Under the pieces are notes generated by a model, which was not told the origin of the DNA, searched no databases, and saw only the letters and a program-made list of their open reading frames with translations. Below, piece by piece: positions 1,313-50,527 of a DNA stretch of 50,755 bases. The DNA is from a virus. Taxonomy: Duplodnaviria > Heunggongvirae > Uroviricota > Caudoviricetes. Made by a program: the position numbers and the translations under genes. The stretch covers positions 1-50,755 of the IMG/VR virus record IMGVR_UViG_2908959467_000003; one strand, 5' to 3'. The first letter of the stretch is position 1. Each line of letters begins with the position of its first letter.

Positions 1313-3268
1313 ATGAGCTTTCTTTTGAAGACTGACAAAACATTGTCTAAAAATTACCAGCCAGGAGTTGATGGACTCCGTGCTGTTGCCGTCATTTTAG
1401 TTCTTATATTCCATGTAGGGTTCAGTAGTGTTCCAGGAGGGTTTGTTGGCGTTGATGTATTTTTTGTTATTTCTGGTTATCTGATAACTGGAATAATTTT
1501 TAATCAAACTGAGAAGGGAACTTTCAGTTACATTAATTTCATGTTAGCCAGGATAGCAAGACTGTACCCGGCTCTTATAGCAACGCTGATCGCCGTTTTT
1601 GCTGGATGCTTTATTCTGTACTCCCCTTCTGATTTTGTTAGCGTATCTAAATCAGCAATCTATGCTTTGTACTCAGCATCAAATATATTTTTTGCACAAA
1701 GCGTTGGTTATTTCGATACATCATCAGAAATAAATCCATTGTTGCACACATGGTCTCTTGGTGTAGAACAGCAGTTCTATCTTGCATGGCCTCTGATTAT
1801 CGGAGCAGCATATTTAGTAAAAAAGAGCCTTGTGCCATGGGTTCTGGTTATTATTAGTATTGCTTCTCTGGCATCCTCTCAGTGGGCAACTATAAACATG
1901 CAGACTGAAGCGTACTACTGGATGCCGTTCAGGGTTTTTGAGTTGTCTTTCGGCGGACTTGCATTCTTCATTTCTCGATGGATAAAACCATCTGAACTAA
2001 TGAAGGAGTCTATGATGGCTGCGGGACTTGCGATGATAGTATCATCTGCGTTGCTTTACTCATCATCAACTCAGTTCCCTGGTTTGCATGCCATGATTCC
2101 CGTATTGGGTGCCATGCTTTGCATTCTTTCACATGATGCAAAATACGCTGGCTTCGCTGTGAATAACAGGGTCAGCGTTACGATAGGCCTGATATCGTAT
2201 TCAGTTTATCTAATTCACTGGCCTATTATTGTGTTTTACAAATACTGGATATATAGAGAGTTAAATGATATCGAGAAAGCATCATTGATTTTATCTTCGC
2301 TGGCTGTTGGATTCTTAATGTACAACGCAATAGAAAATAAATTCAGAAAGATAAAAATAAATGAGTTTTGCTACAAATCAGTATTGCTTTTATCATTAAC
2401 TATATTGGTTATGATTTCGTATTCATCTTCAATAAAAGACAACGGATTTGCATTTAGAATACAAAATTATAAAGAAAACATGGAAATGCTCAAGCCTGGA
2501 TTTAAAGAATATTTATTCGGAGGCTTTGGGGTTAAGCAAGGTGAAATGGTAGTTCTTGGAGATAAAACCAAAAAGCCATCATTTGTTTTCATGGGTGACA
2601 GTTATGCAAGACAGTATTCATTAGCCATGAGTGAATTTCTTGCAAAGAGAAATCTATCAGCAGCAGCATTTTTCGCTGATGGAGCATATCTATCAAATAG
2701 CGTTTACGTTACAGAAAAAGGGAAGGTTTCTGTATATGGTGTGAAGATAGGAACAAAAGCGATAGATTACTCTAGATATAATAAGATACCACTTGTTTAT
2801 GCACAATCATGGCTTAGGTACATGGGGATGCTATCTGATAAAGATGGTAATGTGTATAAATTCAACGGAGACCATGATTATATGAAATTCAATGCTTCCG
2901 TTATTAACAATATTCAAGAGTACACAAATCAGAAAGTAATTGTTATTGGAAACCACCCGGCAGCAATAGGCTCTGACGGAGGTCTTTCTTGTGTGAGCCG
3001 ACCTTCATATGTTGAAAAGAAATGCATTGATAGTATTTTCAGCACAGAAAGCGGTGATAGGTTAGATAGCAATAATTATTTAAATAAATGGCTATCAGAT
3101 AACGGAAGTATAAAGTTTATAAACCCTTATGATTTCATGTGTAGGAATGGGAGATGTAACCTAGTATCTGACAAAGGTGACGTTATGTATTCTGATGAGT
3201 ATCATCTATCAAGATATGGAGCAAGAAAGGCAATTGAAGGGTTTGGAAATATAATTATCGATATATAA
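1313..3268 (+). CDS. Fused acyltransferase-3 / SGNH-hydrolase membrane protein (651 aa), O-antigen acetyltransferase-like
   Basis: N-terminal multi-TM region with AT3-like motifs (..VDGLRAVAVILV..FFVISGYLITG..), soluble C-terminal domain; AT-rich; sits between int and tailspike where conversion genes are found. Confidence 0.7.
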   Translation: MSFLLKTDKTLSKNYQPGVDGLRAVAVILVLIFHVGFSSVPGGFVGVDVFFVISGYLITGIIFNQTEKGTFSYINFMLARIARLYPALIATLIAVFAGCFILYSPSDFVSVSKSAIYALYSASNIFFAQSVGYFDTSSEINPLLHTWSLGVEQQFYLAWPLIIGAAYLVKKSLVPWVLVIISIASLASSQWATINMQTEAYYWMPFRVFELSFGGLAFFISRWIKPSELMKESMMAAGLAMIVSSALLYSSSTQFPGLHAMIPVLGAMLCILSHDAKYAGFAVNNRVSVTIGLISYSVYLIHWPIIVFYKYWIYRELNDIEKASLILSSLAVGFLMYNAIENKFRKIKINEFCYKSVLLLSLTILVMISYSSSIKDNGFAFRIQNYKENMEMLKPGFKEYLFGGFGVKQGEMVVLGDKTKKPSFVFMGDSYARQYSLAMSEFLAKRNLSAAAFFADGAYLSNSVYVTEKGKVSVYGVKIGTKAIDYSRYNKIPLVYAQSWLRYMGMLSDKDGNVYKFNGDHDYMKFNASVINNIQEYTNQKVIVIGNHPAAIGSDGGLSCVSRPSYVEKKCIDSIFSTESGDRLDSNNYLNKWLSDNGSIKFINPYDFMCRNGRCNLVSDKGDVMYSDEYHLSRYGARKAIEGFGNIIIDI

Positions 3269-3316: not shown

Positions 3317-5473
3317 TTACAGCGTTGGGAAGTTTGTTGATAATGGTACTATTGCATATTCAAGTTTTGTTGGCGGATTATTTGCAGCGCTGTATGTTGA
3401 AAGAGCCTCAAGCACAATATACCCACTCCCGTTGTACCCTGCTTTGAAGCAACTTTGCAGGTTTGCTATGGATGTGTCTCCTGGATTTAACCGCTGATCA
3501 ATGGGTGATTTAAGGTCAGTTGCATCTGCCCTGTCCGTTGCGTCATGCGCACCGGAAGACATGATATAAGTAGCATAATTATTTTTTACACCTCCAGTCA
3601 CTTTTATGTGGAGAAGGTAAAGAGTGCGATCAGATGTAGAACCAGTCAATATCTGTTTATCAAGAGTAATTCGTACCTTTGAGCCATCAGATAACACAGG
3701 TAAAGACTTGCTTAACATTGCTACGCCATTAACAGTATTATCATAACCATTTCCGATATAGTTACCTGAACCTACAAAAGCTGAGTTCATTCGCCAGATA
3801 TCTTCTGCCGTAAATAACCCTGACGTAATGAAGTTACCTGTCCATACGTTTCTGTTTCTTTCTGGTCTTGCATTAAGCACCATTCCAACACCCCCGGCCA
3901 TGAAGTTGCCAGATATAACTGCTCCTGACATATCGGTAGTGTTGATGCATTGGAGTCTTAGGTCTTTGTTAACGCCAGGATCAAGAACCATTTGCATGGT
4001 ATTGCTGTTGATACTAATTCCGGCACACCACATGCCATTAAAACCGTTGTTATTGTTGTTTAACGCCTGTGAAGCGATGAAATTAAATATCCTCTGTTCT
4101 GAAGGATTTGTAGCACCTTTATAGTAGAAAACATTATTAGATATGCTAACAAGTGAGGTGCGCAAGAATATCGCAAAGTCATTTAACGGGTTTTCTTCAA
4201 AATGAAATACGTTGTTCGATATAGAAGATCTGCCACCTAATCCGACGCGAGTGCTGCTATCAAATTGCAATGACATCATCTTAATAGCAGTGTTAACAAA
4301 ACGGTTTGATGTTAAAGATACTTCAAGGCCGCCGGTAAAAGTATCAAATTCACATGCGCATTCCGTATTCCTGTTGAAGAAAAGATTGCCGTTAACATTC
4401 CCACCTACGGTAGCGCCACCAATTTTACCTAAGTCAGAGTTAGCTCCACTCTGCATAAAAACATCAAAGGTGTTATTCGTTACATGGAACATTGACTTGC
4501 GAGGCGTTCCAATGTCGACTGATGCAGTCGTGTTGCCAAGAATCATCAGATATGGATATACCTCACCCTGTTCACCTGACATTCCTGCATCAGAGATATA
4601 CTGATCTGTGTTGTCATCAGTCTTGCAGTAGTTATTATCAACTGAGATATGTACGCTGGTTGGGTCCTGACAGTTAACCATGATGTAGCCAACACCGCAG
4701 TTAAAGCATTGCATATCTTTTATCACCACTCGCGTTGGCAAATTCGCCAGCCCATCAGGGTAATCATTGAAAATTACCTGAGGACGCTGGGTGTGGTATG
4801 CATTTGCGGTGAACTTACCGCCGATAATCTCTACTGATTTTGCGCCAAGCGGATGGAAAATATAATCAATGCCATTGAAGGTAAATTCTCCAGTAGAAGC
4901 ATCGATAATGATGTCTCCTGGGATGGTGACGGGGGCCGTTACATCGTACACACCTGATGCTACAACTCTCGTTTTGTTTGCAACCGCATAATTTACAGCT
5001 GCCTGTAATTTTTCTGACGCATTACTTCCGGGGAATACCTCGGGGACAACCCATTTGATGGCATCCTGTACCGTGCCATATGGCATAATCCCAACAAGAC
5101 CAGCGCCGTCTTGATTAGAAAGCCTAATCTCAAATTGATCAGGGTCGTACTTCAGCACATTAGGGAAATAGAACTGCTGTGATCCATATGCATCGTACAC
5201 AGACATAGAATGACCTTGCACAGTTACAAACTTGGCAATCTGTCCGTTATATACCGGATATCCAGCAGCATTAATGATGATTGGTTGCGAAACAGGAACG
5301 TGAGAGCCATCTTCGTTCTCTACATAAACCTGAATCTGGTTTTCTGGATTTACGGGGTCCGTGTCAATTTTACCGATATAAATTTTGCCATTGGCAACCG
5401 CTTTAAAAGAACGCGCCATAGTGAAAAGTTGCGAAGGCATCGATACGATCACATTGGCTGTAATGTCTGTCAT
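3317..5473 (-). CDS. Tailspike protein (718 aa), P22 gp9-type head-binding domain with divergent receptor-binding domain
   Basis: N-terminus MTDITANVIVSMPSQLFTMARSFKAVANGKIYIGKIDTDPVNP.. matches the recalled P22 tailspike head-binding domain; remainder is G/N-rich beta-helix-like and unlike P22. Confidence 0.85.
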   Translation of the reverse strand: MTDITANVIVSMPSQLFTMARSFKAVANGKIYIGKIDTDPVNPENQIQVYVENEDGSHVPVSQPIIINAAGYPVYNGQIAKFVTVQGHSMSVYDAYGSQQFYFPNVLKYDPDQFEIRLSNQDGAGLVGIMPYGTVQDAIKWVVPEVFPGSNASEKLQAAVNYAVANKTRVVASGVYDVTAPVTIPGDIIIDASTGEFTFNGIDYIFHPLGAKSVEIIGGKFTANAYHTQRPQVIFNDYPDGLANLPTRVVIKDMQCFNCGVGYIMVNCQDPTSVHISVDNNYCKTDDNTDQYISDAGMSGEQGEVYPYLMILGNTTASVDIGTPRKSMFHVTNNTFDVFMQSGANSDLGKIGGATVGGNVNGNLFFNRNTECACEFDTFTGGLEVSLTSNRFVNTAIKMMSLQFDSSTRVGLGGRSSISNNVFHFEENPLNDFAIFLRTSLVSISNNVFYYKGATNPSEQRIFNFIASQALNNNNNGFNGMWCAGISINSNTMQMVLDPGVNKDLRLQCINTTDMSGAVISGNFMAGGVGMVLNARPERNRNVWTGNFITSGLFTAEDIWRMNSAFVGSGNYIGNGYDNTVNGVAMLSKSLPVLSDGSKVRITLDKQILTGSTSDRTLYLLHIKVTGGVKNNYATYIMSSGAHDATDRADATDLKSPIDQRLNPGDTSIANLQSCFKAGYNGSGYIVLEALSTYSAANNPPTKLEYAIVPLSTNFPTL

Positions 5474-13271: not shown

Positions 13272-13503
<232 letters not shown>

Positions 13504-13511
13504 GCTTGTCT

Positions 13512-13539
13512 CCAGATAAAAAGGGAGCCGAAGCTCCCT
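13512..13539 (-). terminator. Rho-independent terminator-like hairpin after coat gene
   Basis: Minus-strand AGGGAGC-TTCG-GCTCCCT followed by a U-run. Confidence 0.5.
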
Positions 13540-13546
13540 CTGGTTA

Positions 13547-14842
13547 TCACGCGGTCTGATTAGGCAGACCAACACCAATTGCTTCTGGTCGTACAGCACA
13601 TGCTGAATACCACACAGCAATACGGCACTTACCAGACAGAGTGTTGATATCACCCTGCGTTGCGAAGATGCCGTTAACACCAATACCAGGAATGCTGAAG
13701 GAAGACGTTTTCATGCCAGCAAACAGTTCATGGGTTACCGGGATCGGCTGAGACAGAAGGCGGATTGAGTCATCAGCCCAGAACACGTTAGCGGTGGTTG
13801 TTGCCACGTTCAGAACGTTTACCGGAGTGGTATCAGCAAGAGAGGTGTTTACGTTAGCGTAAGCCTTCTCTTCTTTTGTCAGTGACGCGTCATCCAGTGC
13901 AATCGGCTTCGGCGTGATTTCGATGTGAGTACTATCGATCACACGGGTGATTGAGAAAGTTGCATCATCAGTCAGCACGTTCTTCGCCATCTGAGACAGG
14001 AATTTCACACCAGTGAAACTGATTTTGTCGCCGCGCTTAAATCCGGTGGTGGAGGATACGGTCACCGTTGCAACACGGTTGTCGACGTTCTCTTTGTTAC
14101 CATCGGTATCAAGGGTGTATGCCTGCGGCTTAAACTTCTGCGCGCCAGAAACAGTTACACCAGTAGCGGTTGACTTGGTAACTGCCGGAAGTTTCGGTGA
14201 GCGAAGAATTTCATCAAAGCCAGCAATCTGACGCTGAATAGTACCGTTGCGATACGTATCTTCAGGAACGCGCCCGAAGATGTCACCATCTACAAGATTG
14301 CGGCCTGCTTTGCGGTAATCGTCAGGGTTCAGGAAGTAACTGATACCCATGTCGCGGTTGAGTTCGCGGGAGAACATCAGTCGCTCTGCATCAGACACAA
14401 AATCCCAGCCAGACAGGCCAGTAGATGGACCAATTGCGCGGGTATCGTGAACAACAAGTGAGCCCATTTCGGTTGCCTGTTTGGCAATTGCTGACTCAAT
14501 GTTATTCGCCAGTTTTTTGGCGGATGCCTGGATGCGGCGACGGTAAGAACGCTCATCACGCAGGTCATCTGCACGAAGCTCGAAGAAATCGTTATCCGGA
14601 TCGCCCATGTTGCACTTCACGGAGAGTTCCAGAATCCCGGTTGCGTTGCCAGTTAAATCCCAGCCAGTCTGAGTTGGCGCTTCCTGCTCAACAGGCATCC
14701 ACACGGTGTTGCTTGAACGTTGCATGGATTCTGCCGGAGGGGTGTATTTTGTCACTTTGGACGCCATTGGCGTCAGGTTCTGGACGGTTTCGATGATTTC
14801 ATCGATAGCGTAAGTAACCAACTGCCCTTCTTTGAGAGTCAT
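13547..14842 (-). CDS. Major coat protein, P22 gp5-like (431 aa)
   Basis: Strong similarity to recalled P22 coat ([20 protein letters not shown].., ..[15 protein letters not shown].., ..[14 protein letters not shown]..). Confidence 0.9.
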
Positions 14843-14909
14843 ATATTGAATACCTTACTTTCTTTATGTGCTATACTATTGTTATATCAACATATAGCGC
14901 ATTAGGGTT

Positions 14910-15431
14910 ATGAGCATGGAACTGAATGAATACTTCGAATACCGCGATGGTTCTTTGGTTTGGAAAGCCAGAAGCTCTGAGTTTTTCAACAACAAAAAGA
15001 ATCGCAACTATCACAACGTTTGGAATGCAAAACACGCTGGGAAAGTTGCTGGTCTTTTAGAAAGCAATGGATATATCCGCATAAGAATTAACGGCATTAA
15101 GTGGCTAGCACACCGCATCGTATGGGTAATGTTTAACGGAGATATTCCAGAAGGCATGGAAATTGACCATATAAATGGGATTCGCCACGACAACAGAATT
15201 GAAAATCTTCGTCTTGTGAAAAAATCAGCAAACCAAAGGAATAGAATCAAACTATCTAAAAATAACTCCAGCGGAATATCTGGAGTTTACTTTTGCAACA
15301 CGCGGAAAAGATGGATCGCTCATAAGCGACTGCTTAATGCAAGAGTGCAAAAAGTATGTTCTTCATTCGAAGAGGCGAAAGAAGTAATCAGAAAGTTTGA
15401 CGAGGAAAACAACATCACGATATCGAAATAA
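14910..15431 (+). CDS. HNH homing endonuclease with AP2-like DNA-binding domain (173 aa)
   Basis: EIDHINGIRHDNRIENLRLV HNH core; GISGVYF..RWIAHKR AP2-like; AT-rich; antisense to the late operon between scaffold and coat genes. Confidence 0.75.
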   Translation: MSMELNEYFEYRDGSLVWKARSSEFFNNKKNRNYHNVWNAKHAGKVAGLLESNGYIRIRINGIKWLAHRIVWVMFNGDIPEGMEIDHINGIRHDNRIENLRLVKKSANQRNRIKLSKNNSSGISGVYFCNTRKRWIAHKRLLNARVQKVCSSFEEAKEVIRKFDEENNITISK

Positions 15432-16343
15432 TTATCGAATTCCTTTATTCAGTTGCGCCTTGAGCTTGCGGTATGTCTCTACATCCCCTTTGTTTGCTGC
15501 TGCTTCCATCTGCTTTTCAATCGCAGAGATATTTGCAGCAACAGCGTGTCCCTGAATGGGTTCATCAGGTAACGGGGCTTCTGAAACAGGTTTGGCTCGA
15601 GGCTTGAGAGTTAAACGTTCTGACAGTCGAGTGAGTTCAATCAGCGCGGATTGCCCGTCCATCGCCAGCAACTGGCGTGTTTTCTCAGGATTAGCACCAA
15701 GGTGATACATGAGAGCGGCGGATTTCTCCGGGAAGAGGCGCATGATGTCGGCACCGACTGCTGGCGGCACCAGTTGCATGAATGCATCCTCTTTCTCCTG
15801 ATAGTCAGGGATATTGAGCTTTTCCGCTGCGTCGTAGTGCTTACGGGCTGCCTCGACGTATTGCGCTGATTGCTGGGTGAACTCCTGAGTTTTGCGACCC
15901 TGCTCGGCGACAGCCTGGCTTCGTGCGTCCATAGCCTTGATCTGCCATTCACTGTTTGCCTGCTGGAAGGCAGCCAGTGCGCGGCTCTGGTCATAGTCGT
16001 ACTTAGCCAGCGCATCTTCGGAAAGATAATCGTTAGGGTCTGGTTGTTTTGGTAACTCAGGGTTCACCCGCAGGTGCTCCGGCAACTCTCCACGCTTAAC
16101 CGCTTCCATCTGCTGCTCAAGCTCACGCTGGCGTTTGCGTTCGATGCGGCGACGGGCAAATTCAGCATTAGTTGCCGGGTCTTGTTTTGGTTTCTCATCG
16201 TCTTTCAGGACAATCTCGAAGCCTTCTTCCTGACCTGCGATGTCGTTGGCATTATCGACAACTAAGCCATCAGCAGATGCCGCTGCATGATTGCCGGGCA
16301 GGGTTAATTCTTCAGAAGCCTGAATGTCGGTGGTTTGGTCCAT
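15432..16343 (-). CDS. Scaffolding protein, P22 gp8-like (303 aa)
   Basis: Size 303 aa and position between portal and coat. Confidence 0.85.
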
Positions 16344-16356
16344 GGTTAACTCTCTC

Positions 16357-18522
16357 TTATTGAGGTGTCTCGGCTACTCCGCCGGAGGGGATTTGAACTT
16401 GACGCATAAGATTCGCGAAATCCATGCGTTGTGAATGAGTCTGGTCTGCATCTTTAAGAAGCAGCTCAGCGTTAGCACGAGCATCTTTGCTGCGCTGTTG
16501 CTGGAATTGACCTACGAGCTTGAGGTACTCACGCAGTTCTGCCTGCTTGTCGAGGTCCATATTGTTGAAGATTTCTGCAATCTTCGCGGCGTTGAGTTGG
16601 TTTTGGGCTTCAACCTTGGCGGCTTCAACCTGAATCTGCGCCTGTTGGTTCTCTGCCTTGAGCAATTCAGCCTGACCTTGCAGAAGGATACCCTGCGCCT
16701 GAATTTGCTCTGCTGATGGCTGCTGCGGCTGCTGTTGAGCATGCTGTACCATCTCCATCTCTTCAGGTGTTTCTGGTTTCTTCAGCCCCATCATCACCAG
16801 TTGCTTGTTCGCGTACTCTCGCATCATCTCGACGCCTTTACCGTCAAGCAGCGTGAAGTATTGCAGCATCAGCATCTGGAACTCTGGAGTACCTTGCGGA
16901 ACCTTGGTGAGTAACTCCTGAATCTCTGCGCGGTTCTGTTCCTTCATGCTCTGGAAGGATGGCCCAACGTCCGTATAGCACTCATAGCGACCACGAATGT
17001 CGTTGAGTGTGACCACATTACCGGACTGGTAATCGACAACTTGCGCGTAGAGTTGAACGTCTTTCTCGCTACCATCTTCAAGTGTCAGCGTTACATGACG
17101 AGGAACGTCATAAATATCGTTGACCATTGAGGCATAAATCTCGCCATCACGTCGCATTGCGGTAGCCAGGTTATCCTGAAACACGTATGTCTCAAGGTCT
17201 GCCCGCATGTTCAGTTGATTGACGGTATCGAAAGCGACCTGACCGTTTGCTGCCTGCGCATCCACACCAAGACTAGCCACCTCTTTCACTGCGTTGGTGG
17301 CAGCCTCAAGCATGTAAGCGTTGGCTTGCGGCACTTCAGGGTTTTCCATGTAGGAGATTGGACCAATCGGCAGGTCGTTACCGTTTTCATCGGTCCTGTT
17401 CTGCAGATAGTACGGATAGTCATCATTTCCACCGTACATGTATTCGTAGCCTTCGATTTGCTCAGGGAAGAAGGTCGGTTTCTTCTTCGGTGAACGAGCA
17501 ACAATATCGGCGTTGAACGACATGATCATGTTACGAAGGCGTTGACCGTCTTTCGTCAGCCTTACCACGCCCTCGTAGCACTCCTTGTCACCAGCGAATG
17601 ACCATTCGCCGTACACAGGAACGATTGGGATATGCTCTCCAGCTATCTTCTCGCGGTCTTTCAGTATCTGCGTGCAGGTGATGATCGACTTATACACACG
17701 CCGACGCTTCACCTTGCGCTCTGCTACCTTAATGAATCCACGATTAGCCAGGTCGTCGATGACGTCTTTGATATCCTGCTGGTAATAGCTGACCGGCTCA
17801 CCTGTCAGCGGGTCGCGGTAGATGAAGACTTTCTCCTTCTTCTCTTCTACCTCGTAATACTCAGCGACGTAGACGACATCATTCGATACCCACGGAAACA
17901 GCCATGTATCGTTCGGATTCTGGAAAGATGGCAAGGTATCCGGATCAATACCGTAATCCTCTGCGAACTCTTTCCAGCCATTGCGTGACAAGGCGTTAAT
18001 CACCGTGCAGTGCTTAGCGTCGCTCTTATCCATCTGCTTGCTGTTGGCGTCCCATATGACGTGTGAGCAGGCTTCATGGATTGGAAGGCGTCGGATTACC
18101 TGATTGTTGCTTGTTGGGTCGTTGTCTTCGTACTGCGTGACCAGACGCCATGCGCCAACGCCAGACTCTATCTGCTCACGAACGCCAACGTTAACGGCAA
18201 TTTTTGCCGTGTTATGGCGCATATCAGTACGATACATCCCCATCAGCACATCGGCAGCATCAGGATTAGCTCCGTCTTTTGGTCTGAATAGAACGTCGAT
18301 AGGGTTCCGGCGCATCTCTGCGACCAGCTTCCTGACCACCGGGCGAACAACATCAAATTGTCCGCGATATTGCAGGGTGGTGTAGTTTGATAGCCAGTCA
18401 TCCCATTGCGACACTCGGCTAAAATACAGGTCATTTGTCGCCTCGGTTCTGGCTTCATCGCTCGCCATCCAGTCTGCGTCAAACTTACACAGAATGGAAT
18501 TGAGTCTGTTTTCGTCGGCCAT
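16357..18522 (-). CDS. Portal protein, P22 gp1-like (721 aa)
   Basis: Long-range similarity to recalled P22 portal, including the C-terminal Q/A-rich barrel region. Confidence 0.9.
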
Positions 18523-40220: not shown

Positions 40221-40380
40221 TGAACACTTCTCACTAAGTCCAATTAATTCCATAACTCACTGTTTTAACTGATATCATCTCCTTATACTCGTCCAGCAAA
40301 GTACCATTATTTCTAATGGAATCTATACATCTTTGCGTATAACATTGTGTATAACTGAGTTCGATCTTTTTTCTATACAC

Positions 40381-41556
40381 ATGCTGCTATCTGACATCCA
40401 AATAAAAAGAGCAAAACCGAAGGACAAACCCTATACGCTTAACGATGGTATGGGGCTATCACTCCTGATCGACACAGCGGGCAGTAAAGGCTGGCGTTTT
40501 CGCTATCGCTTTGCAGGTAAGCCTAAGATGATTTCCTTTGGCGTATATGGCGATGTGTCGTTGGCACAGGCACGTACCAAACGTGATGAAGCGCGTTCGA
40601 TGTTAGCCAAAGGGATAAACCCAAGTGAAGCCAGAAAAGCAGATAAGATTGCTTTGCAGTTCGCGCATGAGAACAGCTTTGAGTCTGTGGCCAGAGAATG
40701 GCACTCATCGAAAAAAGCCACCTGGTCAGAGGGTTATGCAAAAGAGGTTCTCAATTGTATGGAAAAGGATATTTTTCCTTTTATCGGCCAGCGCCCAATT
40801 GAGCAGATTGAACCATTAGAACTGCTAACCGTCCTGCAAAAAATAGAGAAAAGAGGTGCGCTAGAGCAAACCAGTAAGATCCGCCGCCGCTGTGGTGAAG
40901 TGCTTCGTTATGCTGTTGCCACTGGTAGAGCAAAGTATAATTTTGCACCCGATTTAGCTATCGCACTCAACAAACCTAAAACCCAACACTTCCCGTTCCT
41001 GACTGAAAGCGAGTTGCCCGAGTTCGTTAATGCTCTGGATAACTATCAGGGCAGTTTAGTTACCAAATACGCCACGCAGCTGTTGATGCTAACAGGCGTG
41101 CGAACAATTGAACTACGTGCAGCGGAATGGGCTGAGTTTGATTTAGATAATGCCTTATGGGAGATCCCCAAAGAACGGATGAAGAAACGCCGCCCCCATC
41201 TGGTTCCGTTATCAACTCAGGCGATCAATATCCTGAAAAAGCTGCAAGAAATAACAGGGAATTACAGCCTCGTTTTCCCTGGCCGAAATGACGTCAGGAA
41301 ACCAATGAGCGAAGCCAGCATCAACAAAGTGATAAAACTACTGGGTTATCACGGTCGGTTAACGGGTCACGGTTTCAGGCATACCATGAGCACCATCTTG
41401 CATGAGCATGGGTTTGAAAGTGCCTGGATTGAAATGCAGCTTGCGCATGTTGATAAGAACTCTATTCGAGGTACTTACAATCATGCGCAATATATTAAAG
41501 ATCGACAAGTAATGATGGAATGGTACGCTAGCTTATTAAATACGACCTGCTATTAA
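40381..41556 (+). CDS. Tyrosine integrase, P4 family (391 aa)
   Basis: MLLSDIQIKRAKPKDKPYTLNDGMGL.., ..RRRCGEVLRYAVATGRAKYNFAPDLA.., ..HGFRHTMST..; paralogous to the int at 1..1158. Confidence 0.85.
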   Translation: MLLSDIQIKRAKPKDKPYTLNDGMGLSLLIDTAGSKGWRFRYRFAGKPKMISFGVYGDVSLAQARTKRDEARSMLAKGINPSEARKADKIALQFAHENSFESVAREWHSSKKATWSEGYAKEVLNCMEKDIFPFIGQRPIEQIEPLELLTVLQKIEKRGALEQTSKIRRRCGEVLRYAVATGRAKYNFAPDLAIALNKPKTQHFPFLTESELPEFVNALDNYQGSLVTKYATQLLMLTGVRTIELRAAEWAEFDLDNALWEIPKERMKKRRPHLVPLSTQAINILKKLQEITGNYSLVFPGRNDVRKPMSEASINKVIKLLGYHGRLTGHGFRHTMSTILHEHGFESAWIEMQLAHVDKNSIRGTYNHAQYIKDRQVMMEWYASLLNTTCY

Positions 41557-42486
41557 ATCCAGCATGAAACAAATATGGTGAGTAATTTGATACTGTTTGT
41601 TTTTTGGCAACCCAGGGAAATGCCTTACAGTTGGTTGACTATTGTAATAATAATAGTTAAGACCAATGTTGCTGCCAAACTGGGTTGGATGTTGGGGAAC
41701 AAGATTTGTAATTTGATCTGAAACATCTAAAAATTTTGCAGTAACATTTGAACTTCCTCGTTGCGTGTTGCTTGATACAAAATGACGAATCCAAACTGTA
41801 TTCGCTTGTAAATTCTTGAACACCAAATGTGCGGCAACAGCAGAAGGTTGACCACCTCCAAGATCTAGTACCTGGCCAGTAATTGTATAATCGCCAAATC
41901 CTAAGTAATTTTGTCCCACGAATTGATGTGCGTGCGTGAAAAGTTCCGGCCCATTATAATCAGCATTTTTTGCTAACTTTCTAAAGTTATCGCTAATAAT
42001 AATTAACTTCGACAAAGGAAGAAGAGCGCACTGATTAGGAAGCATTTTATTATTTAAAACAACATGATAACTAATCAATTGATTTGTCGCCAACAACTGA
42101 ATATCAGAGTTGGATAATGATGGATTATCATATAGAAGTGCAACTCGTCTATTTAAGTTAGCATTCAACCAATTATTAATATCATTAATCGTTGTATTGG
42201 GCTGAATAAGATATCCAGAGATGATATTGTTTTTATTTGTTAATACACTTGATAAATTTTGATTTAAAGTTAAGACGTTATTGTGTGAAGAAAAATCTTC
42301 CTGATAAGGATTAAGGATAACAATTATGTCAGAATTCCAAACATTTAAACATGTTAATAAATTTCTCGTATTGACGTTAATTGGTTCTAAAATTGGTAGC
42401 AGACCATTTAGGCTAACTCCCTTCGCAACGAGGTCCCTAAGGCATAATAACTCTGTACTTCTCGCATACAAATATGGGCTATACAT
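41536..42486 (-). CDS. Cargo protein B (316 aa), unknown function; second gene of an AT-rich two-gene operon
   Basis: N/S/L-rich low-GC ORF, 21 nt after gene A; no recognised motif; 3' end overlaps the convergent int by 21 bp. Confidence 0.6.
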   Translation of the reverse strand: MYSPYLYARSTELLCLRDLVAKGVSLNGLLPILEPINVNTRNLLTCLNVWNSDIIVILNPYQEDFSSHNNVLTLNQNLSSVLTNKNNIISGYLIQPNTTINDINNWLNANLNRRVALLYDNPSLSNSDIQLLATNQLISYHVVLNNKMLPNQCALLPLSKLIIISDNFRKLAKNADYNGPELFTHAHQFVGQNYLGFGDYTITGQVLDLGGGQPSAVAAHLVFKNLQANTVWIRHFVSSNTQRGSSNVTAKFLDVSDQITNLVPQHPTQFGSNIGLNYYYYNSQPTVRHFPGLPKNKQYQITHHICFMLDLIAGRI

Positions 42487-42507
42487 AACTTACAACTCCT
42501 GAGGATA

Positions 42508-43389
42508 TCAACAAATTTTAATTTTTACATCCATCAAATTCATGATGAATTCTTTTTGCTTTCTTGATAATGGTGTTGCATAACCTAAAACACGTAAACA
42601 TGCTGGAAGAGAATAAATATAATCCAAAAAAACTTTGTCGTTACATCTTTTTTTCATAGCAGAGATAAAGTATTTATTTGCTATGTTTAATGGCATCTGC
42701 ATGAATATCTCTTTACAATATTCATAAACCAATCCATTAGGCATATTTATTTTAGTTGAAGTGTAATCTTCTATTATAGCTAAGAACTCTTCCTTTCTAA
42801 GAACTGAAAACAAGCTGTCACTTTTAATATAATCAATATTTGAATCTGCCTCCTTAATGACACTCAATTGATCTTTTTTATTCAAAACCATAACTCCCAC
42901 TCTGGGGAGATTTAAAGCACAATATTTACTTGCATACTCTGGATGTGTAACTATATACACTTTATCAAAAACATCCAAATAATCAGGGGCTTGAGTAATC
43001 AACCTTTTTGGTGAATCATACTCTGTCTTAATCTCGTAAGCTGTAGACGTACCATTAAACACCGCAACATCCACTATAGAGTTTTTAATTGGTAACTCTA
43101 TGGACGACGAACTTGTTTTTGGGCTGTGCTTACCGAATATTATTTTATTGACAAGTGCTGTCTTATAAACATATTCATTTCTATAATTCAGACGCAAAAA
43201 ATCATATAATGATGTAAATAAATCCCTTAGTGAAATCTCATGTTCATTATTATCATTGTTTGAAAACAGTGTTTCATAGCAGTAAGAATCAAAACTCCCA
43301 AATAAATCCGAAATATCCTTACCTTTTGCTAAGGATGAAAAAATGGGGCGACGGAAAAATTTAGCATATTCCTTTTTATTATGACTCAT
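42508..43389 (-). CDS. Cargo protein A (293 aa), putative PD-(D/E)xK nuclease-fold protein
   Basis: ..SIELPIKNSIVDVAVFNGTSTAYEIKTEYD.. gives the E / hydrophobic-D / E-x-K arrangement; AT-rich. Confidence 0.6.
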   Translation of the reverse strand: MSHNKKEYAKFFRRPIFSSLAKGKDISDLFGSFDSYCYETLFSNNDNNEHEISLRDLFTSLYDFLRLNYRNEYVYKTALVNKIIFGKHSPKTSSSSIELPIKNSIVDVAVFNGTSTAYEIKTEYDSPKRLITQAPDYLDVFDKVYIVTHPEYASKYCALNLPRVGVMVLNKKDQLSVIKEADSNIDYIKSDSLFSVLRKEEFLAIIEDYTSTKINMPNGLVYEYCKEIFMQMPLNIANKYFISAMKKRCNDKVFLDYIYSLPACLRVLGYATPLSRKQKEFIMNLMDVKIKIC

Positions 43390-44069
43390 TACTCATACTC
43401 TATAAACATCATGCAATTTGATAAGTTATGACGAATTCTCACCATCCAGTTACTACCTGTACATACTAATCAAAAAAAACGAGTACGCAAGATACGAAAG
43501 TACTTTTCTTGTTCACCAGTTAGCTTACCTTGATCCTCACCAGCGACTGGAAGATAGGTAGCAGTATATGTGGAAACCTTCCCCTAGCTAGGTCTACAAA
43601 CGTAGTTTGGGCATTTAGGCTCCACGATTCACGGTTTGACACGGCCTGATATCTGCACATTCGTTTTGATATGCAGCAATCGTGAAAAAGGGAAAATATA
43701 CGCTCGACAGACCAAAACGGCACTACACCGCACCCGCCTGCGGTTTTCATATCACTAAAAATTTTCAGCCTGGATTTTTTACAAACGATACCGCCAGTCC
43801 GTGCCAGTCCTCGAGATGTACTGCGATACAGGAACTGAAAAGAATGAAAAGAAATTCATTTTTTTTCAGTTTTACTGTCCGTCGAATCTATGGCCTGAAT
43901 ACGCAACTCTATGATATTAAATGGATAATTAATTTTAGGTGTGTGATTTTATGAAGGTTTGTGAAACATGAAGAAGATAACCAGTTGAAAAATAATAATT
44001 TTATGACCGTATAAACTGAAATCCTGTGTTCAGGTTCCGGGAACAGATCGGCCATTCCCGACGCATACT

Positions 44070-44342
44070 TTACCCATTCTTTTGCGCAGCCAGCAGCAAC
44101 TTTAAAGCCTTTTCCCGTTCCTCGGGTGGAATTGCATCAATCAGCTCTTTAACCCTTCCCTGCCCGTTCAGCGCGCTTGGACTAACGGAATGGGAGAAAG
44201 CAACATTCATCACAAACGAGTGACCGCACTCCACATTAGAGCAATAGCAGTACACATCGTACAGTTGTGGGTGTTTCCTGTTTGTTTTACCTATCCGTGC
44301 TACTGCCTGACATGTGGGGCAGTACATTCTCATCATCTTCAT
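44070..44342 (-). CDS. ogr: Ogr/Delta-family zinc-finger late-gene activator (90 aa; start may be an internal Met)
   Basis: C-x2-C...C-x4-C pattern (MYCPTCQ..CYCSNVEC) as in P2 Ogr / P4 Delta. Confidence 0.7.
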   Translation of the reverse strand: MKMMRMYCPTCQAVARIGKTNRKHPQLYDVYCYCSNVECGHSFVMNVAFSHSVSPSALNGQGRVKELIDAIPPEEREKALKLLLAAQKNG

Positions 44343-44408
44343 CGTTCTGTGCCCTATACTGTTGCCCGCCAGAAGAAGGGATTTGGATCCCTACCTCTTG
44401 TTCTGAAC

Positions 44409-44598
44409 GTGTAACACTGGTAACACGTGTAACGCTATTGATTTAAAAGGATTTAATCTGTTACCAGTTAGCAAAATCAAGAGGTAACGCGTGGTAACAC
44501 ACCATTTTTTGTTACCTCTGTTACCAGTCAGTATTTTTGACTGGTAACACTGAAGAACCGCATCAGTAACGGGTGTTACCTCTGTTACCAGTGTTACC
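44409..44598. repeat. Iteron cluster: at least 12 copies of (G)GTAACAC / GTGTTACC in about 190 bp, P4 crr/ori-like
   Basis: Repeats read directly; motif TGTTACC is one base from the recalled P4 alpha-binding octamer TGTTCACC. Confidence 0.65.
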
Positions 44599-44624
44599 TC
44601 ATAAAAATAAGACTCACGCGATAA

Positions 44625-47312
44625 TCACTCAGGTTCAGCGCTTCCCAGTACCTGTGTATTGAACTGGTACACACGTTTAAGCCCTATTTCTGGCAGGCGA
44701 ATGCTGTTTTGCGTCCGGCCATCTTCACCGGGTTTCAGCCAGCCCGCGTCCACACACAACCTGGCCACCTTACGCGAGTCAAATCCCTTACAGATCTCCT
44801 TCCAGCCTGACGGGAGAACGTAGAACGTCACAACCGGCTCTGTCACGTTGTCTCCTTTATCGACTTTTCTGAATCCCATCATTGAAACAGGCCGGTTCCT
44901 GTCGTCATTCCAGTCAGCAAACCGACTGAACTGATTACGCGTCATGAAGTCCCGAACCTGTTCAAGTGCCGCTTTATCTTCCTGATTAGCTGTATGGCCC
45001 CGGTCAGCCATCCATGCAGCCAGACAGCTTTGAGCGGCACGAAAGGCCTCTCCCTCCGGCCATCCTGTGATGCCCGCTTTTGTGGCCAGCTCCCCGGCCA
45101 TCGCAACCAGAGCAAAACGGGTAACAGCCCGGCCAACCTGATTCCCGGCATTTTCCGGCGTCAGCCTTCGGGTATACTCTTTCAATAAGGCTTTCGCCTG
45201 ACTGGTCAGTTCCGGCAGATCAGCGGTCAGGCAATACAGCCAGTCGCGGAATGGTGCACCATGATAATGCGCTACGTGCTGCTCAAGATGCTCAGCCAGG
45301 GTTTTCCCGCTACTGAAGCCATGAAGTTCTTCAAACACGCCATACTTGCCCGAATCGCTTGGGATCTGGATCATTCTGACCTCAACCCCGGCATACGTAC
45401 GTTCCCCGGCGCTTGCCGCATGCTCTACCAGTGACAGTTCCCCGGTAGACAGAAACAACAGATTCCAGCGGTTGGTTTCCCTTACCGAACCATCTGTTCT
45501 GGCTCTGGCTTTGCCCTGCCCGTTAGCCAGCATATAAGCGATATTCCCCGCCTCCCTGCCGTCAACCTCCCGGATTTCATCCAGCATCAGCGTGGCATCA
45601 TTGCGGCGGCTCGCCGTTCCTTCTAAGGCATTCCCCGTCGCCCGCCACGTATGCCAGAAATCTGTTCCACCACATACTGATGCAGCCACTTTCATCGTCG
45701 TGGTTTTACCGTCTGTGGATTCCCCTTTGAGGTGATAACCTCCACCGCCGATACCAACCAGTTTCAGAAGGGGGGCAGCAAATGCCAGACTCACCGCAAA
45801 GGCAAGACGGGCATTCTTTATGCAATAACGGCCTATATTTTCACGCCAGCCCTCTGATGTGCCGCTGACACGAAAATCACGCCCCTGCACACTCGATGTT
45901 TGTAAGATGACTGACTGGGCTTCGCGCCCTATCACTTCATCCTGGAGAACGTAAACCCCGCCGTGCCAGCCAGTTTTATTCACACAGGTTACTTTTCTGT
46001 CCGGTTTACACAGCGAGATATATTCCATCAGGAATGCTCTGGCCATGCCATTAATGTTGATGTAAGAAAGCCCGTTAACCAGCAGAACGCGGCGCAGTTC
46101 TTCCCCGCTACCGCCCAGCATCTCCATCGGCATTGCCCATTTACGGCTGTTTCCGTTGGTATCTTCCCATTCCAGCAAACGCCCGTAATTACTTCCATCA
46201 GCATCACTGGTGATTGCCGTCACCCGCAACGGACTGCAAATTTTGATATTACGTATCTCTGTATCACCATCAGACTTATTAACCAGCTTGTCGTACCACA
46301 AATATTCTTTTGTCAGCCGGAACCCTTCTGGTAAACGGGTCTGCCCTTTGCCATGCAGCGTCATTTCTTCACGAAAGGCATCTCTCGCCCGTTCTTTCCC
46401 CACTTCCTGCCGATAATCATCCCAGTCAGCCTTATGGCGTACCGGAGGGAGCGTTACCCAGCCATCCACCGCTTTGGCGGCTTTCTCTGCCTGAATACGC
46501 CCGGTGTTTTCTTTGCCGTCAGCCAGATCATTATCTCCGGCCAGAATGATCCGAGTTTCCGGCCAGCGTTTTCGGATCTGCTCCGTCACCTTCAGTAAAT
46601 TGGTGGCAGCGACAGCCGCCACGATCCATCCTTCAGTCAGCAGACTGACGGTAAGCGCCGTGGCAAAACCCTCAGTGATAATCACCTGTTCAGGTGTTTC
46701 AGCGGGTATATCGGTCAGGGCAATGAATGCGCCAGACAGCTGGCTACCGGGCAGCAGACTTTTATCCCCGTCAGGATTGATAAGCTGGCCACCAGTAATA
46801 TTCCCGGAAATATCCGTCAAAGGCAGCAGTAATGAACCGGTGGAAAATGTTATTCCGGCCAGATTCAAAGGCTGTGACAGCAAGGGAAGTGAATACCCGT
46901 GTAAGCCCTTATTTGTCAGATAGACCGGCTCACCATTGCAGGACTGCTGTCTGAGTCTGGTATATCGCTCCGCGCCCGCTTCTTTTCCTGCGGCCTTTTT
47001 CCTGGCTGGCAATGCGGGCTTCTCCTGTATTTCTGGTAATGCAAGCGCCTCAGATACCATCCCGGCGACTTCTTTTATCTTTCTTCCTGTCACCAGACGA
47101 ACCAGATCAAGACCATCGCCATGACCGCACTGATTACAAAACCACGTCCCTCGCCCCGCTTTATCGTCCAGTCGAAAACGATCTTTTCCACCACAGGCAG
47201 GGCAAGCCCCATGATGTCCTGCGGACGGTACTTTAATACCTAATGCTGACAGGATATAAGGCCAGCGCCCAATTGCAGCTCCGGAAATCGTGGATACAGA
47301 CGGTGTTTTCAC
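44625..47312 (-). CDS. Primase-helicase, P4 alpha-type (895 aa)
   Basis: N-terminal zinc-binding primase motif (CPACGGKDRFRLDD..WFCNQCGHGDG), central P-loop (GESTDGKTTT). Confidence 0.85.
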   Translation of the reverse strand: MKTPSVSTISGAAIGRWPYILSALGIKVPSAGHHGACPACGGKDRFRLDDKAGRGTWFCNQCGHGDGLDLVRLVTGRKIKEVAGMVSEALALPEIQEKPALPARKKAAGKEAGAERYTRLRQQSCNGEPVYLTNKGLHGYSLPLLSQPLNLAGITFSTGSLLLPLTDISGNITGGQLINPDGDKSLLPGSQLSGAFIALTDIPAETPEQVIITEGFATALTVSLLTEGWIVAAVAATNLLKVTEQIRKRWPETRIILAGDNDLADGKENTGRIQAEKAAKAVDGWVTLPPVRHKADWDDYRQEVGKERARDAFREEMTLHGKGQTRLPEGFRLTKEYLWYDKLVNKSDGDTEIRNIKICSPLRVTAITSDADGSNYGRLLEWEDTNGNSRKWAMPMEMLGGSGEELRRVLLVNGLSYININGMARAFLMEYISLCKPDRKVTCVNKTGWHGGVYVLQDEVIGREAQSVILQTSSVQGRDFRVSGTSEGWRENIGRYCIKNARLAFAVSLAFAAPLLKLVGIGGGGYHLKGESTDGKTTTMKVAASVCGGTDFWHTWRATGNALEGTASRRNDATLMLDEIREVDGREAGNIAYMLANGQGKARARTDGSVRETNRWNLLFLSTGELSLVEHAASAGERTYAGVEVRMIQIPSDSGKYGVFEELHGFSSGKTLAEHLEQHVAHYHGAPFRDWLYCLTADLPELTSQAKALLKEYTRRLTPENAGNQVGRAVTRFALVAMAGELATKAGITGWPEGEAFRAAQSCLAAWMADRGHTANQEDKAALEQVRDFMTRNQFSRFADWNDDRNRPVSMMGFRKVDKGDNVTEPVVTFYVLPSGWKEICKGFDSRKVARLCVDAGWLKPGEDGRTQNSIRLPEIGLKRVYQFNTQVLGSAEPE

Positions 47313-47719
47313 AGCAGCACCTCCTGACCTTCCGGCTTCACAAATTCAAAACCTTCGGGTAGTTCGCCATCAGGTGCTCCGAAAATAATATCCCGGTAAA
47401 CCTCACGCATCTCTGTGACACCAAAAACTGACAGGCGAATATTTTCTGACATAAAGCCTGGTTTAAGCATTTTTTCCAGTTTCTCTGCGGCCAGTATGCA
47501 ACCAGCATCAGCCCCAAACTCATTCACCCACGGCATTTCAATATGGTAAATAATATTACTCACCACTTTTTCGTGGGAGAGTTCTATTCGTTCGCCATCT
47601 TCAATATAAACAGGTTCATTATGAACACGCACCATTAAGGAAATGAATGCATCAGCAATGTAGTAGCGTAAGACTGCTGTTCGTAAAGCATGCGCCTTTA
47701 AATTTTGATTATTATTCAT
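47309..47719 (-). CDS. Hypothetical protein (136 aa) upstream of the primase
   Basis: Overlaps primase start; position analogous to P4 epsilon/orf151. Confidence 0.45.
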   Translation of the reverse strand: MNNNQNLKAHALRTAVLRYYIADAFISLMVRVHNEPVYIEDGERIELSHEKVVSNIIYHIEMPWVNEFGADAGCILAAEKLEKMLKPGFMSENIRLSVFGVTEMREVYRDIIFGAPDGELPEGFEFVKPEGQEVLL

Positions 47720-47948
47720 CGCGCATCACTCCCTTAATTGTGCTGGTTTCCTTAACAACGCCATCCAGTTGTTCGGCAATACAGGCCACTAAAGCCGCAG
47801 CGCCTTCCGCTGAAACAGTTCTCGCTCCATTCACTGTGGGCACGGACAAGACCTCTGCAAGAAACTCACTGGCCAGTGCCGCCCGTAACAGACGACTCTC
47901 CCCCTGTTCACTCAATATGCAGCCTTGCTTAAAATTCATGGATTTCAT
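47712..47948 (-). CDS. Hypothetical protein (78 aa)
   Basis: Operon member; no motif. Confidence 0.4.
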   Translation of the reverse strand: MKSMNFKQGCILSEQGESRLLRAALASEFLAEVLSVPTVNGARTVSAEGAAALVACIAEQLDGVVKETSTIKGVMRDE

Positions 47949-48148
47949 GCAACCACCTCCCCGGCTCTTTTCACAGGGATACGGGCAGCAAAGCTCAGGA
48001 TAAATTCAGTGGCAAGTTTAAGGCGTGCAGCATGCTCGCATTCTGCGATTACACGCACAGGGCGTGGACGGGCATCACGGTCTGTACGGCGGACAGCCAG
48101 AAAGACAAAGGTAAATTCAGGGTGAGATAAAGCAGGGACTGTAGCCAT
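47945..48148 (-). CDS. Small hypothetical protein (67 aa), first gene of the alpha operon
   Basis: ATG at 48148 with GAAGGAGG RBS; the longer track ORF to 48535 is an unsupported extension. Confidence 0.4.
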   Translation of the reverse strand: MATVPALSHPEFTFVFLAVRRTDRDARPRPVRVIAECEHAARLKLATEFILSFAARIPVKRAGEVVA

Positions 48149-48160
48149 AATGGCAACCTC

Positions 48161-48425
48161 CTTCAGATAGCGGGTAACGCTACCACCGGAGTTCCTACGC
48201 TCATGGGTGGTAGCCCAGACGGGGGTAGGAATACCGGCTCTGAAGGATACCGGCCAGCCCGAAAGCTGCCCCGCCTGGACTACCATAATTCTGATGATGT
48301 GGCGTAAAAAATAAAAAAATACAATCAGCCACCACACCATAAATTTTAGGTGAGTCAAAGCTGCGACACAAAAAAACACGCCTGGCGCGTGTAGTATCGC
48401 CTTCAGATAACACGGGTTCCTACGC
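48161..48425 (-). promoter_or_regulatory. Candidate RNA immunity region (P4 seqA/cI/seqC-like) with internal terminator
   Basis: Two direct copies of CTTCAGATA..GTTCCTACGC (48401..48425, 48161..48200) flank a reverse-complement copy (48225..48247); hairpin + U7 at 48370..48392. Confidence 0.4.
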
Positions 48426-48577
48426 CCGGCTGCCGATTTTGCGGCAACCTTTAAACTATATCCCGCGCATTCCTGGTGAGGCAAGAAATTTATAACCGAA
48501 AACTGATCATTGCCTGGATTAATTAACGCTGGCATGCTTAAGCCTCTGCTTAAAAATAGTTCTTCATTTTTCCTGAT

Positions 48578-48608
48578 GCTGTAAACGAGACCCGCCTCTG
48601 AGCGGGTC
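48578..48608 (-). terminator. Hairpin terminator after capsid-like gene
   Basis: Minus-strand GACCCGC-UCAGAG-GCGGGUC followed by UCGUUUAC. Confidence 0.45.
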
Positions 48609-48622
48609 TTTCTGTCGCTAAG

Positions 48623-49627
48623 TCAATCCGCAAACGTCAGGGCGCTCTCATCGACAGCCGCGTACAGTTCAGGTTCACCGAGTGCATAACCTTCATTGCG
48701 CAGGTAGGAATGCACGTATTCACTGCTTTCATCATCAAACTCAGCACGAAACCAGCGTGTTATCGCCTGAGTGTAAATATGCAGATTATCCAGCGTCGTT
48801 ACTGCCAGACGCTTACCCGGCATAAACGGGGGAATAAACGCAAAGCGGCCAGCAACAGAACTTGTAGCCATCTGTGCCGCATTCACATCAGACGGGCGGT
48901 CTGCGGCATTAAATAACTTCAGGCGTTGATGTGCTGCCAGCTCTGCCCCAACCAGTACAACCAGACGAGGATCTTCACGAAACTGCTCAGCAATAAGCTC
49001 TGTAATCAGATGGTTGGCCAGAGCATCAATATTTTTCCAGGTGCCAGTCTCTCCCAGAGTGACAGGCTCAGAGATGATTTGCTTTCCGTTCCCGTAGGCT
49101 TTCGCCAGTGCATGCCAGCCAATATTGACATCCTCGCCTTTTTTATTGATTTCCGGGTTTGTAGTATTTGCAATCGACACACCATTGAAACCGACCCGCA
49201 GCATGTCCAGCGCATATGCCTGGGCAAAAAAGCTCTCAACCGTTTTCTCAAACTCATCCGGCACGCCGGTATGGTAAATATGAGACATATCGGAATAGCT
49301 GATCCGGGCGCAGGTATCCGTCTCTGTCAGAAAGAACTCCGTACCATTGATTGCCATTTTTTTGTGGAAACGGCCACCATCCACACGTCCGGTATACAGT
49401 TCACTGGCACCAATATTGACGGCATTACCTGACACGGCGTTAACATCACGTAGGGTAATATTTTTAATAAGCCACCCGGATTCCAGAATTGAGGTACGCA
49501 GTATATTTTCAGTAGGTTCGCTTAATGCAAAGCGTCTGTTTGATTCTTCCTGATAGTTAGTGCCAGTGACGAATTTATTATGATAACGACGTGCTGCGTC
49601 CGGCCTTTCAGTTTTGAAGGCATACAT
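48623..49627 (-). CDS. P2 gpN-family major capsid-like protein (334 aa)
   Basis: Blocks alignable to recalled P2 gpN (GFNGV, ..IGW.., DALANHLITELIAEQFREDPRLVVLVG, LDNLHIY); from memory, unverified. Confidence 0.5.
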   Translation of the reverse strand: MYAFKTERPDAARRYHNKFVTGTNYQEESNRRFALSEPTENILRTSILESGWLIKNITLRDVNAVSGNAVNIGASELYTGRVDGGRFHKKMAINGTEFFLTETDTCARISYSDMSHIYHTGVPDEFEKTVESFFAQAYALDMLRVGFNGVSIANTTNPEINKKGEDVNIGWHALAKAYGNGKQIISEPVTLGETGTWKNIDALANHLITELIAEQFREDPRLVVLVGAELAAHQRLKLFNAADRPSDVNAAQMATSSVAGRFAFIPPFMPGKRLAVTTLDNLHIYTQAITRWFRAEFDDESSEYVHSYLRNEGYALGEPELYAAVDESALTFAD

Positions 49628-49649
49628 AGTTTTTCACCTTTTTAAGTAT

Positions 49650-50510: not shown

Positions 50511-50527
50511 ATATTTGCCACCTCAAT

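Follow-up and report, generated by a model that had tools for sequence, protein, structure and literature searches.

A probable free-standing HNH homing endonuclease at the scaffold/coat junction of P22-like phages, with a candidate target in the first codons of the coat gene

Between the scaffolding and coat protein genes of a P22-like phage lies a small antisense gene. Its product is probably a homing endonuclease of the free-standing, I-HmuI-like HNH/AP2-like type, directed at the 5' end of the neighboring coat gene. The gene was studied in a window of 50,755 nucleotides (the whole stretch of DNA analyzed; IMG/VR record IMGVR_UViG_2908959467_000003, Caudoviricetes). An earlier note on this DNA had proposed a free-standing homing endonuclease, and the proposal is supported in silico by the existence of empty alleles, an intact HNH motif, a structural match to I-HmuI, and a recoded tract in the coat gene beside the insertion. 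The element is of an ordinary kind and does not represent a new kind of system; its natural target-site record is unusually clean.

The open reading frame runs exactly as had been described, with 173 codons on the strand opposite to the late operon, although its start codon is ambiguous (14910 or 14916); RefSeq uses the second ATG, whose distance from the AGGG at 14904-14907 is the more favorable. The claim of a zero gap to the scaffold gene is likewise borne out, as the TAA stop codon of the HNH gene (15429-15431) touches the scaffold stop codon on the minus strand (15432-15434), and the portal gene is found further upstream (16357..18522). The insert is AT-rich, also as claimed, with a GC fraction of 0.379 in comparison to 0.508 for the coat gene, 0.530 for the scaffold gene, and 0.511 for the portal gene. 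The features of the junction are as follows:

14910..15431, plus strand: HNH endonuclease gene, 173 aa (alternative start at 14916, 171 aa)
13547..14842, minus strand: coat (major capsid) gene, the presumed target (P22 coat, PF11651, E 2e-162)
15432..16343, minus strand: P22-type scaffolding protein gene (PF09306, E 2e-178)
14843..15431, no strand assigned: inserted cassette, 590 bp relative to empty alleles, with a 1-base ambiguity at the joint; 38% GC

Public records already name the gene 'HNH endonuclease', and a search for a second copy of it in the window found none. A 2011 survey of P22-like assembly genes by Casjens and Thuman-Commike reportedly may mention extra genes in the cluster, while a search of the open-access literature found no paper on the HNH gene, the scaffold/coat junction, its empty alleles, or the recoded tract.

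The remainder of the window holds several features of its own. Its first three nucleotides are the ATG of an integrase gene (1-1158), followed by a gene for an AT3-SGNH acyltransferase that probably modifies O-antigen (1313-3268) and, on the other strand, a tailspike gene (3317-5473), so that the P22-like gene order is seen here running through the attachment region. A perfect tandem repeat of the hexanucleotide TCTGGC (13319-13358, 6.7 copies) sits between the coat and gp4-like adaptor genes and reads (EP)n or (SQ)n in two overlapping minus-strand open reading frames. Relatives are annotated with different gene lengths at this repeat, so its copy number probably varies, and phage APC_JM3.2 has an annotated repeat_region there. 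At the far end, a second tyrosine integrase gene (40333-41556) is followed by genes for a DUF927/Toprim primase (44625-47312) and a P2-family major capsid protein (48623-49627), with Rfam matches to C4 antisense RNA (48203-48290) and isrK (48371-48448); the region from 40333 to 50755 looks like a separate satellite-like element beside the P22-like prophage.

The earlier note placed the gene in a slot that is short and gene-free in P22. This is an understatement, since P22-type phages have no intergenic space here at all: in the P22-type Salmonella phage L, as in the closest E. coli relatives, the scaffold stop codon and the coat start codon overlap by a single shared base (TAATG). When window positions 13500-16400 were used to search GenBank phages, the filled relatives were Escherichia phages Louie and Dewey (98.4% identity), and the empty relatives, at 97.1-97.6% identity, were CurroJimenez_Bas106, APC_JM3.2, IME10 (three records), and HZ41, making four distinct phages in six records, all with the one-base TAATG overlap. 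Over the same span, filled loci measure 5902 bp and empty loci 5312 bp, a difference of exactly 590 bp. Comparison with relatives lacking the insertion, which the earlier note had recommended, thus reveals an empty site and an exact 590-bp presence/absence polymorphism. In a census of 5,426 complete E. coli genomes, the junction was present in about 218, with 19 copies filled (98.4-99.7% identical; an occupancy of about 9%), 8 hybrid-empty, and about 191 ordinary empty. Nine further filled copies were found in IMG/VR, and the open reading frame is intact in all copies seen (at least 32). A scan of species-representative genomes for close relatives of the protein returned none above 49% identity. 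The earlier note had named a gene conserved in all relatives, with no empty-site alleles, as the outcome that would speak against homing; the opposite is clearly the case, with about 199 of the 218 E. coli junctions empty, along with those of phages that are 97-98% identical. As a separate observation, tblastn located a second, weaker HNH-like place in each of the genomes of Louie (PQ850616.1) and Dewey (PQ850600.1).

These empty alleles bear on a possible role for the HNH protein as a packaging accessory, as in the HK97-like cos phages. The HNH proteins of the HK97 gp74 type also have an HNH motif encoded in the head/packaging region, and the gene studied here lies among the head genes, with the terminase genes 3 kb away. 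However, the HK97-type proteins form a different subfamily, are encoded adjacent to and in the same orientation as terminase, and are required for cos cleavage, whereas the present gene is antisense to the head operon, sits between scaffold and coat, encodes a protein of the HNH_3/AP2 homing type rather than the terminase-associated type, and is dispensable, being absent from the viable same-clade phages CurroJimenez, IME10, and APC_JM3.2 and from about 91% of the prophages with the junction. It does not belong with the HK97 type. P22-like phages, moreover, package by a headful mechanism. A packaging role is scarcely credible and can be set aside on the grounds of dispensability in sister phages and antisense orientation.

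The protein itself consists of an N-terminal beta-rich region, an HNH_3 core (aa 66-110), and a C-terminal AP2-like domain (aa ~121-166). The core matches the HNH_3 profile (PF13392) with an E-value of 3.9e-22 and a score of 78 bits, in comparison to a cut-off of 24.8 bits, and the protein matches PHROG 99, 'HNH endonuclease', with an E-value of 1e-50; NCBIfam profiles gave no match, and among the PADLOC defense models only 'homing endonuclease' was matched. Across 63 aligned homologues H68, D86, H87, D94, N95, R96, N99, L100, and N108 are invariant, so that the catalytic D-H…N…N set (D86, H87, N99, and N108) is intact and aligns to the corresponding residues of I-HmuI. The best solved structure by sequence is I-HmuI (PDB 1u3e, E 8e-4, aa 35-120), and an AlphaFold (AF2) model built from the 63-homologue alignment (pLDDT 88.7) has I-HmuI as its top Foldseek match in the PDB, with a probability of 1.0.

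The AP2-like character of the C-terminal domain, also claimed in the earlier note, is only partly borne out: the model and the family consensus agree with it, the profile does not. In the model, this part contains three strands and a helix (strands at 126-129, 134-140, and 145-150, helix at 153-166), and Foldseek matched it to the AP2-domain structures 3igm, 6sy0, and 9fi8 with probabilities of 0.66-0.97, weak matches with E-values of 0.07 or worse. The family consensus holds the AP2 pattern SG..GV…W.A…G…LG.F…A, of which the window protein keeps SG..GV, W135, and A156, and many homologues have precomputed PF00847 matches. The window protein itself scores 15.7-17.7 bits against Pfam AP2 (PF00847; E 0.004-0.02), below the cut-off of 33.3 bits, and for this reason the label, while reasonable, falls short of proof.

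Endonucleases combining HNH and AP2 domains are a known family of phage homing enzymes, often encoded beside essential or structural genes (PMC10448857). The 'IPA-HNH' homing endonuclease genes of phages, cyanobacteria, and protists share the layout of an N-terminal HNH_3 and a C-terminal AP2-type domain, and their tendency to lie beside essential structural genes is matched here (PMC10448857). The closest phage homologues, at 40-49% identity, come from virulent phages, T1-like ones among them, and are annotated as HNH homing endonucleases. Unlike other IPA-HNH genes, those of the present clade have temperate P22-like phages and prophages as their carriers and keep to a single junction, where all of them lie antisense, and unlike the IPA-HNH proteins with PF00847 matches, the AP2 region of the window protein falls below the Pfam threshold. 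I-HmuI, from the Bacillus phage SPO1, is also phage-borne, shares the beta-rich N-terminal region followed by an HNH core with the D-H…N…N set, and acts next to its own insertion site, like the target proposed here. It differs in being encoded by an intron in a DNA polymerase gene rather than standing free between genes, and in having a helical, helix-turn-helix C-terminus where the present protein has the AP2-like arrangement of three strands and a helix; the two are only about 23% identical.

More diverged members of the family occupy the same position. On every contig encoding the protein-database homologues P0002, P0003, and P0004 (82%, 73%, and 61% identity), the HNH gene lies antisense between P22-type scaffold and coat genes. 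The three genes diverge in step: in the 82%, 73%, and 61% lineages, coat identity to the window is 88, 72-74, and 68%, and scaffold identity is 75, 74, and 48%, respectively. Between the window gene and its 82% homologue, dN/dS is 0.055, with synonymous sites near saturation; this is the one pair for which the ratio could be estimated, synonymous sites being saturated in the deeper comparisons. Because the same slot and strand are occupied at 61-82% identity, with co-divergence of the neighboring genes and a low dN/dS, the HNH lineage is old at this site and has been kept functional. The 'recent selfish insertion' of the earlier note therefore describes the local situation, a young cassette in the window clade, but not the HNH lineage as a whole. 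The lineage nearest to the window-clade cassette is only 82% identical, and the donor is not among the sampled sequences. Two IMG/VR contigs carry other HNH-AP2 genes at the same joint, again antisense, with identities of 43% (L100:1392-1928) and 36% (L113:1399-1947). Since L100 and the 73% lineage have coat backgrounds with 98% identity, one endonuclease gene seems to have replaced another at the joint.

Filled and empty alleles also differ in the coat gene next to the cassette:

14804..14839, minus strand: recoded tract spanning coat codons 2-13 (nt +4 to +39 of the gene), in strict linkage with the cassette

Among three filled and four empty genomes aligned over 5.3 kb, there are 13 fixed differences, all at 14804-14839; under uniformity the chance that all 13 would fall in one 36-nt span is about 1e-24. 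A scan of 2,208 nt of scaffold and coat sequence for frequency differences above 0.8, in which 13 filled alleles were set against 75 ordinary empty ones, picked out 14 sites and no others, namely coat positions +4, 6, 7, 9, 12, 18, 21, 22, 24, 27, 30, 33, 37, and 39; no carrier-specific change was found in the scaffold gene of these alleles. The recoding changes only three amino acids (A2T, N4K, and L13I), with the rest of the changes silent. An empty-type tract was found in none of the carriers examined.

The linkage extends across lineages. Codons 5-7 read GAAGGGCAG in 16 of 16 carriers from four lineages, with coats 68-88% identical, and GAAGGTCAA in 135 of 147 empty alleles sampled across widely diverged coat lineages of the P22-like type, as well as in the phage L coat. 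The remaining empty alleles have GGTCAG (6), GGCCAA (3), GGGCAA (1), or GAAGGGCAG (2, both of them hybrids). The Fisher P-value for this core linkage, 3e-20, overstates independence, as the sequences counted are related by phylogeny and provide only three or four truly independent comparisons between carriers and empty alleles, all of which point the same way. The 73% lineage differs from its nearest empty relatives (L099, L101, L102, and L122) at +6, 9, 10, 11, 18, 21, (24), 27, and 30, and the 82% lineage differs from its nearest empty relative, L019, at +18 and +21 too. Alteration of the carrier allele beside the insertion, one of the marks looked for in a homing element, was thus found in the window clade and is replicated in other lineages. 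As for the more distant genes at the joint, that of L100 is linked to GAAGGACAG in the coat core, while that of L113 is found with an unchanged core and a shifted coat start. It is likely from these allele patterns that the homing recognition site lies within the first 13 coat codons and not simply at the scaffold/coat joint, and the stretch that is recoded is the candidate region for recognition or cleavage of the empty allele, with carriers having a putatively protected version. The 'immunity' of the recoded tract is an assumption; enzymes of the I-HmuI type nick rather than cut and can act on carrier DNA too.

Eight E. coli genomes (including L015 and L016) have no cassette and a normal TAATG overlap, together with a mixed tract that is empty-type from +4 to +9 and carrier-type from +12 to +39 (ATGGCATTAAA|AGAAGGGCAGTTAGTTACTTACGCTATCGAT). 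These hybrids show that the recoded tract can exist without the cassette. They are the pattern that would be expected from partial gene conversion with a break near +10, or from cassette loss through a crossover in a 2-nt window, and a single event may account for them, given that the junction is the same in all eight. Nucleotide diversity, measured over 13 carriers, amounts to 0.0042 for the cassette and 0.0039 for the tract, in comparison to 0.020 in the coat gene and 0.011 in the scaffold gene, so that cassette diversity is about five times below that of the flanking coat. This low diversity fits recent spread into diverged backgrounds, but it is explained just as well by a single old insertion followed by recombination of its flanks with the abundant empty alleles.

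The same diversity would also be compatible with a single origin of another kind, in which the cassette arrived once through ordinary or illegitimate recombination with a diverged phage, the nuclease being uninvolved and the tract marking only the end of the imported DNA. The tract does look like imported foreign sequence, because it is similar to the start of the coat gene in other carrier lineages, and its peptide is identical to that encoded in L019, an empty allele of another lineage. An import of this kind is nonetheless improbable. It does not account for an open reading frame that is intact in at least 32 copies and under strong purifying selection, nor for the wobble positions +18 and +21, which set carriers apart from the closest empty alleles in three or four separate lineages. 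The end-points, moreover, hug the cassette, at 0 nt on the scaffold side and no more than 39-120 nt on the coat side, which would not be expected of random crossovers, and three HNH sub-lineages occupy the same joint.

The cassette carries putative expression signals for the HNH gene and a new leader for the coat gene:

14869..14877, plus strand: extended -10-like element TGCTATACT upstream of the HNH gene, a putative promoter element read from the sequence
14843..14862, minus strand: new coat leader from the cassette, with the Shine-Dalgarno sequence AAGG (…GTAAGGTATTCAATAT-ATG)

A -35-like TTGAAT is found at 14846-14851, and its 20-nt spacing from the -10-like element explains why a consensus promoter scan that required a spacing of 16-18 nt did not call a promoter for the HNH gene. 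Versions of the -10 element (TGCTATAAT, TGCTATACT, or TATAAT) are kept in the 82%, 73%, and 61% lineages, while the surrounding spacer has diverged. Downstream, a terminator-like hairpin followed by a T-run lies on the plus strand inside the scaffold gene (15663-15677), about 230 nt past the HNH stop codon, and could end the antisense HNH transcript; the phage L record has an antisense terminator annotated elsewhere in its scaffold gene. Another hairpin, within the HNH gene at 15264-15287, was scored as terminator-like on both strands, but it lacks conservation in the 82%, 73%, 61%, and 43% lineages and was therefore taken to be a by-product of the SG..GV codons.

In empty alleles, the last codons of the scaffold gene contain the coat Shine-Dalgarno sequence (…AAAGGAATTCGATA-ATG). 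Although their overlap is lost on insertion, both genes stay intact, and the cassette supplies the coat gene with a new leader and its own AAGG. By eye, this leader is identical to the scaffold 3' end at about 13 of 18 positions; it may be a diverged duplication, or the two may be alike simply because a Shine-Dalgarno sequence is required in both. These changes raise another explanation for the recoded tract, that it compensates for lost translational coupling by tuning coat initiation after the 590-bp separation. In empty alleles the two genes do overlap at TAATG, with the coat Shine-Dalgarno sequence in scaffold codons, and it is this arrangement that the insertion replaces with a new leader. 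In a simple local folding model (region -20 to +13, same carrier leader), however, the carrier leader was harder to open with the recoded tract than with the empty-type tract (9.3 vs 5.6 kcal/mol), the reverse of what compensation would call for. The 8 hybrid-empty alleles, moreover, have the tract but no cassette, and the same wobble changes recur behind different leaders in other lineages, making a compensatory role very improbable.

Another reading, which is possible but doubtful, is that the nuclease is kept mainly as a weapon against rivals through marker or superinfection exclusion, damaging P22-like coat genes, with homing as a by-product; expression would come from the prophage, or early in infection, via the gene's own host-type promoter, and such a role would be compatible with homing and with all of the observations made here. 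With an antisense position and a conserved -10-like element, the gene need not await late transcription. A homing gene that is purely selfish should degenerate once it is fixed, whereas this one has been under long purifying selection (the dN/dS given above) and has co-diverged with coat and scaffold down to 61% identity. Its presumed target, GAAGGTCAA, is conserved in very diverged P22-like coats, that of phage L included, and homing endonucleases of T4 do carry out marker exclusion (PMC2988022). On the other hand, an occupancy of only about 9% means that continued homing alone can maintain selection, and the PADLOC search matched no model of a defense system apart from the homing endonuclease itself. 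A second P22-like junction was found in 0 of 19 carrier genomes, an uninformative count, as about one was expected. A more far-reaching version, which is rather unlikely, is that the scaffold/coat joint is a long-standing battleground, with the HNH-AP2 clade acting as a heritable anti-kin weapon under an antisense host-type promoter, possibly expressed from the prophage. The enzyme would cut the first coat codons of rivals and convert the survivors, and resistant-empty alleles and replacement of one HNH gene by another would be counter-moves.

In the favored explanation, homing into the coat 5' end, an extended -10 promoter of the sigma-70 type, belonging to the HNH gene itself, would drive its transcription against the direction of the late operon. 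The enzyme would recognize the conserved coat 5' end of cassette-less relatives (…ATGGCATTAAATGAAGGTCAACTGGTCAC…) and nick or cut there. During co-infection, or when an incoming phage meets a resident prophage, recombinational repair from the carrier would then copy the 590-bp cassette, with its Shine-Dalgarno leader, and the recoded stretch of about 36 nt together, and the allele patterns suggest that the recoded coat codons 2-13 would shield the carrier allele from the enzyme that it encodes.

Homing with co-conversion of flanking sequence is established for T4 (PMC2988022). The free-standing T4 enzymes MobA, MobE, and Seg are encoded between genes and undergo intronless homing with co-conversion of flanking markers, an arrangement similar to the one described here (PMC2988022, PMC2790892). 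They target a conserved, essential neighboring gene, as is proposed for the present enzyme, and MobA and MobE are nicking HNH enzymes. The T4 enzymes, however, typically cut hundreds to thousands of bp away, while the target proposed here lies within about 40 bp, and most of them ride on existing transcripts, in contrast to a gene that is antisense, has its own promoter-like element, and resides in a temperate phage.

The scaffold/coat junction thus offers a clean and experimentally tractable case of predicted intron-less homing in temperate P22-like phages. The carriers Dewey and Louie and their empty sister CurroJimenez infect the same laboratory host (PMC11990801). The candidate target is confined to about 36 bp in a coat gene that is the best studied of any phage, and empty alleles that are putatively resistant occur naturally and can serve as controls. 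For the study and engineering of P22 assembly, the insertion is of significance in that it breaks the translational overlap between scaffold and coat and alters three N-terminal residues of the coat protein.
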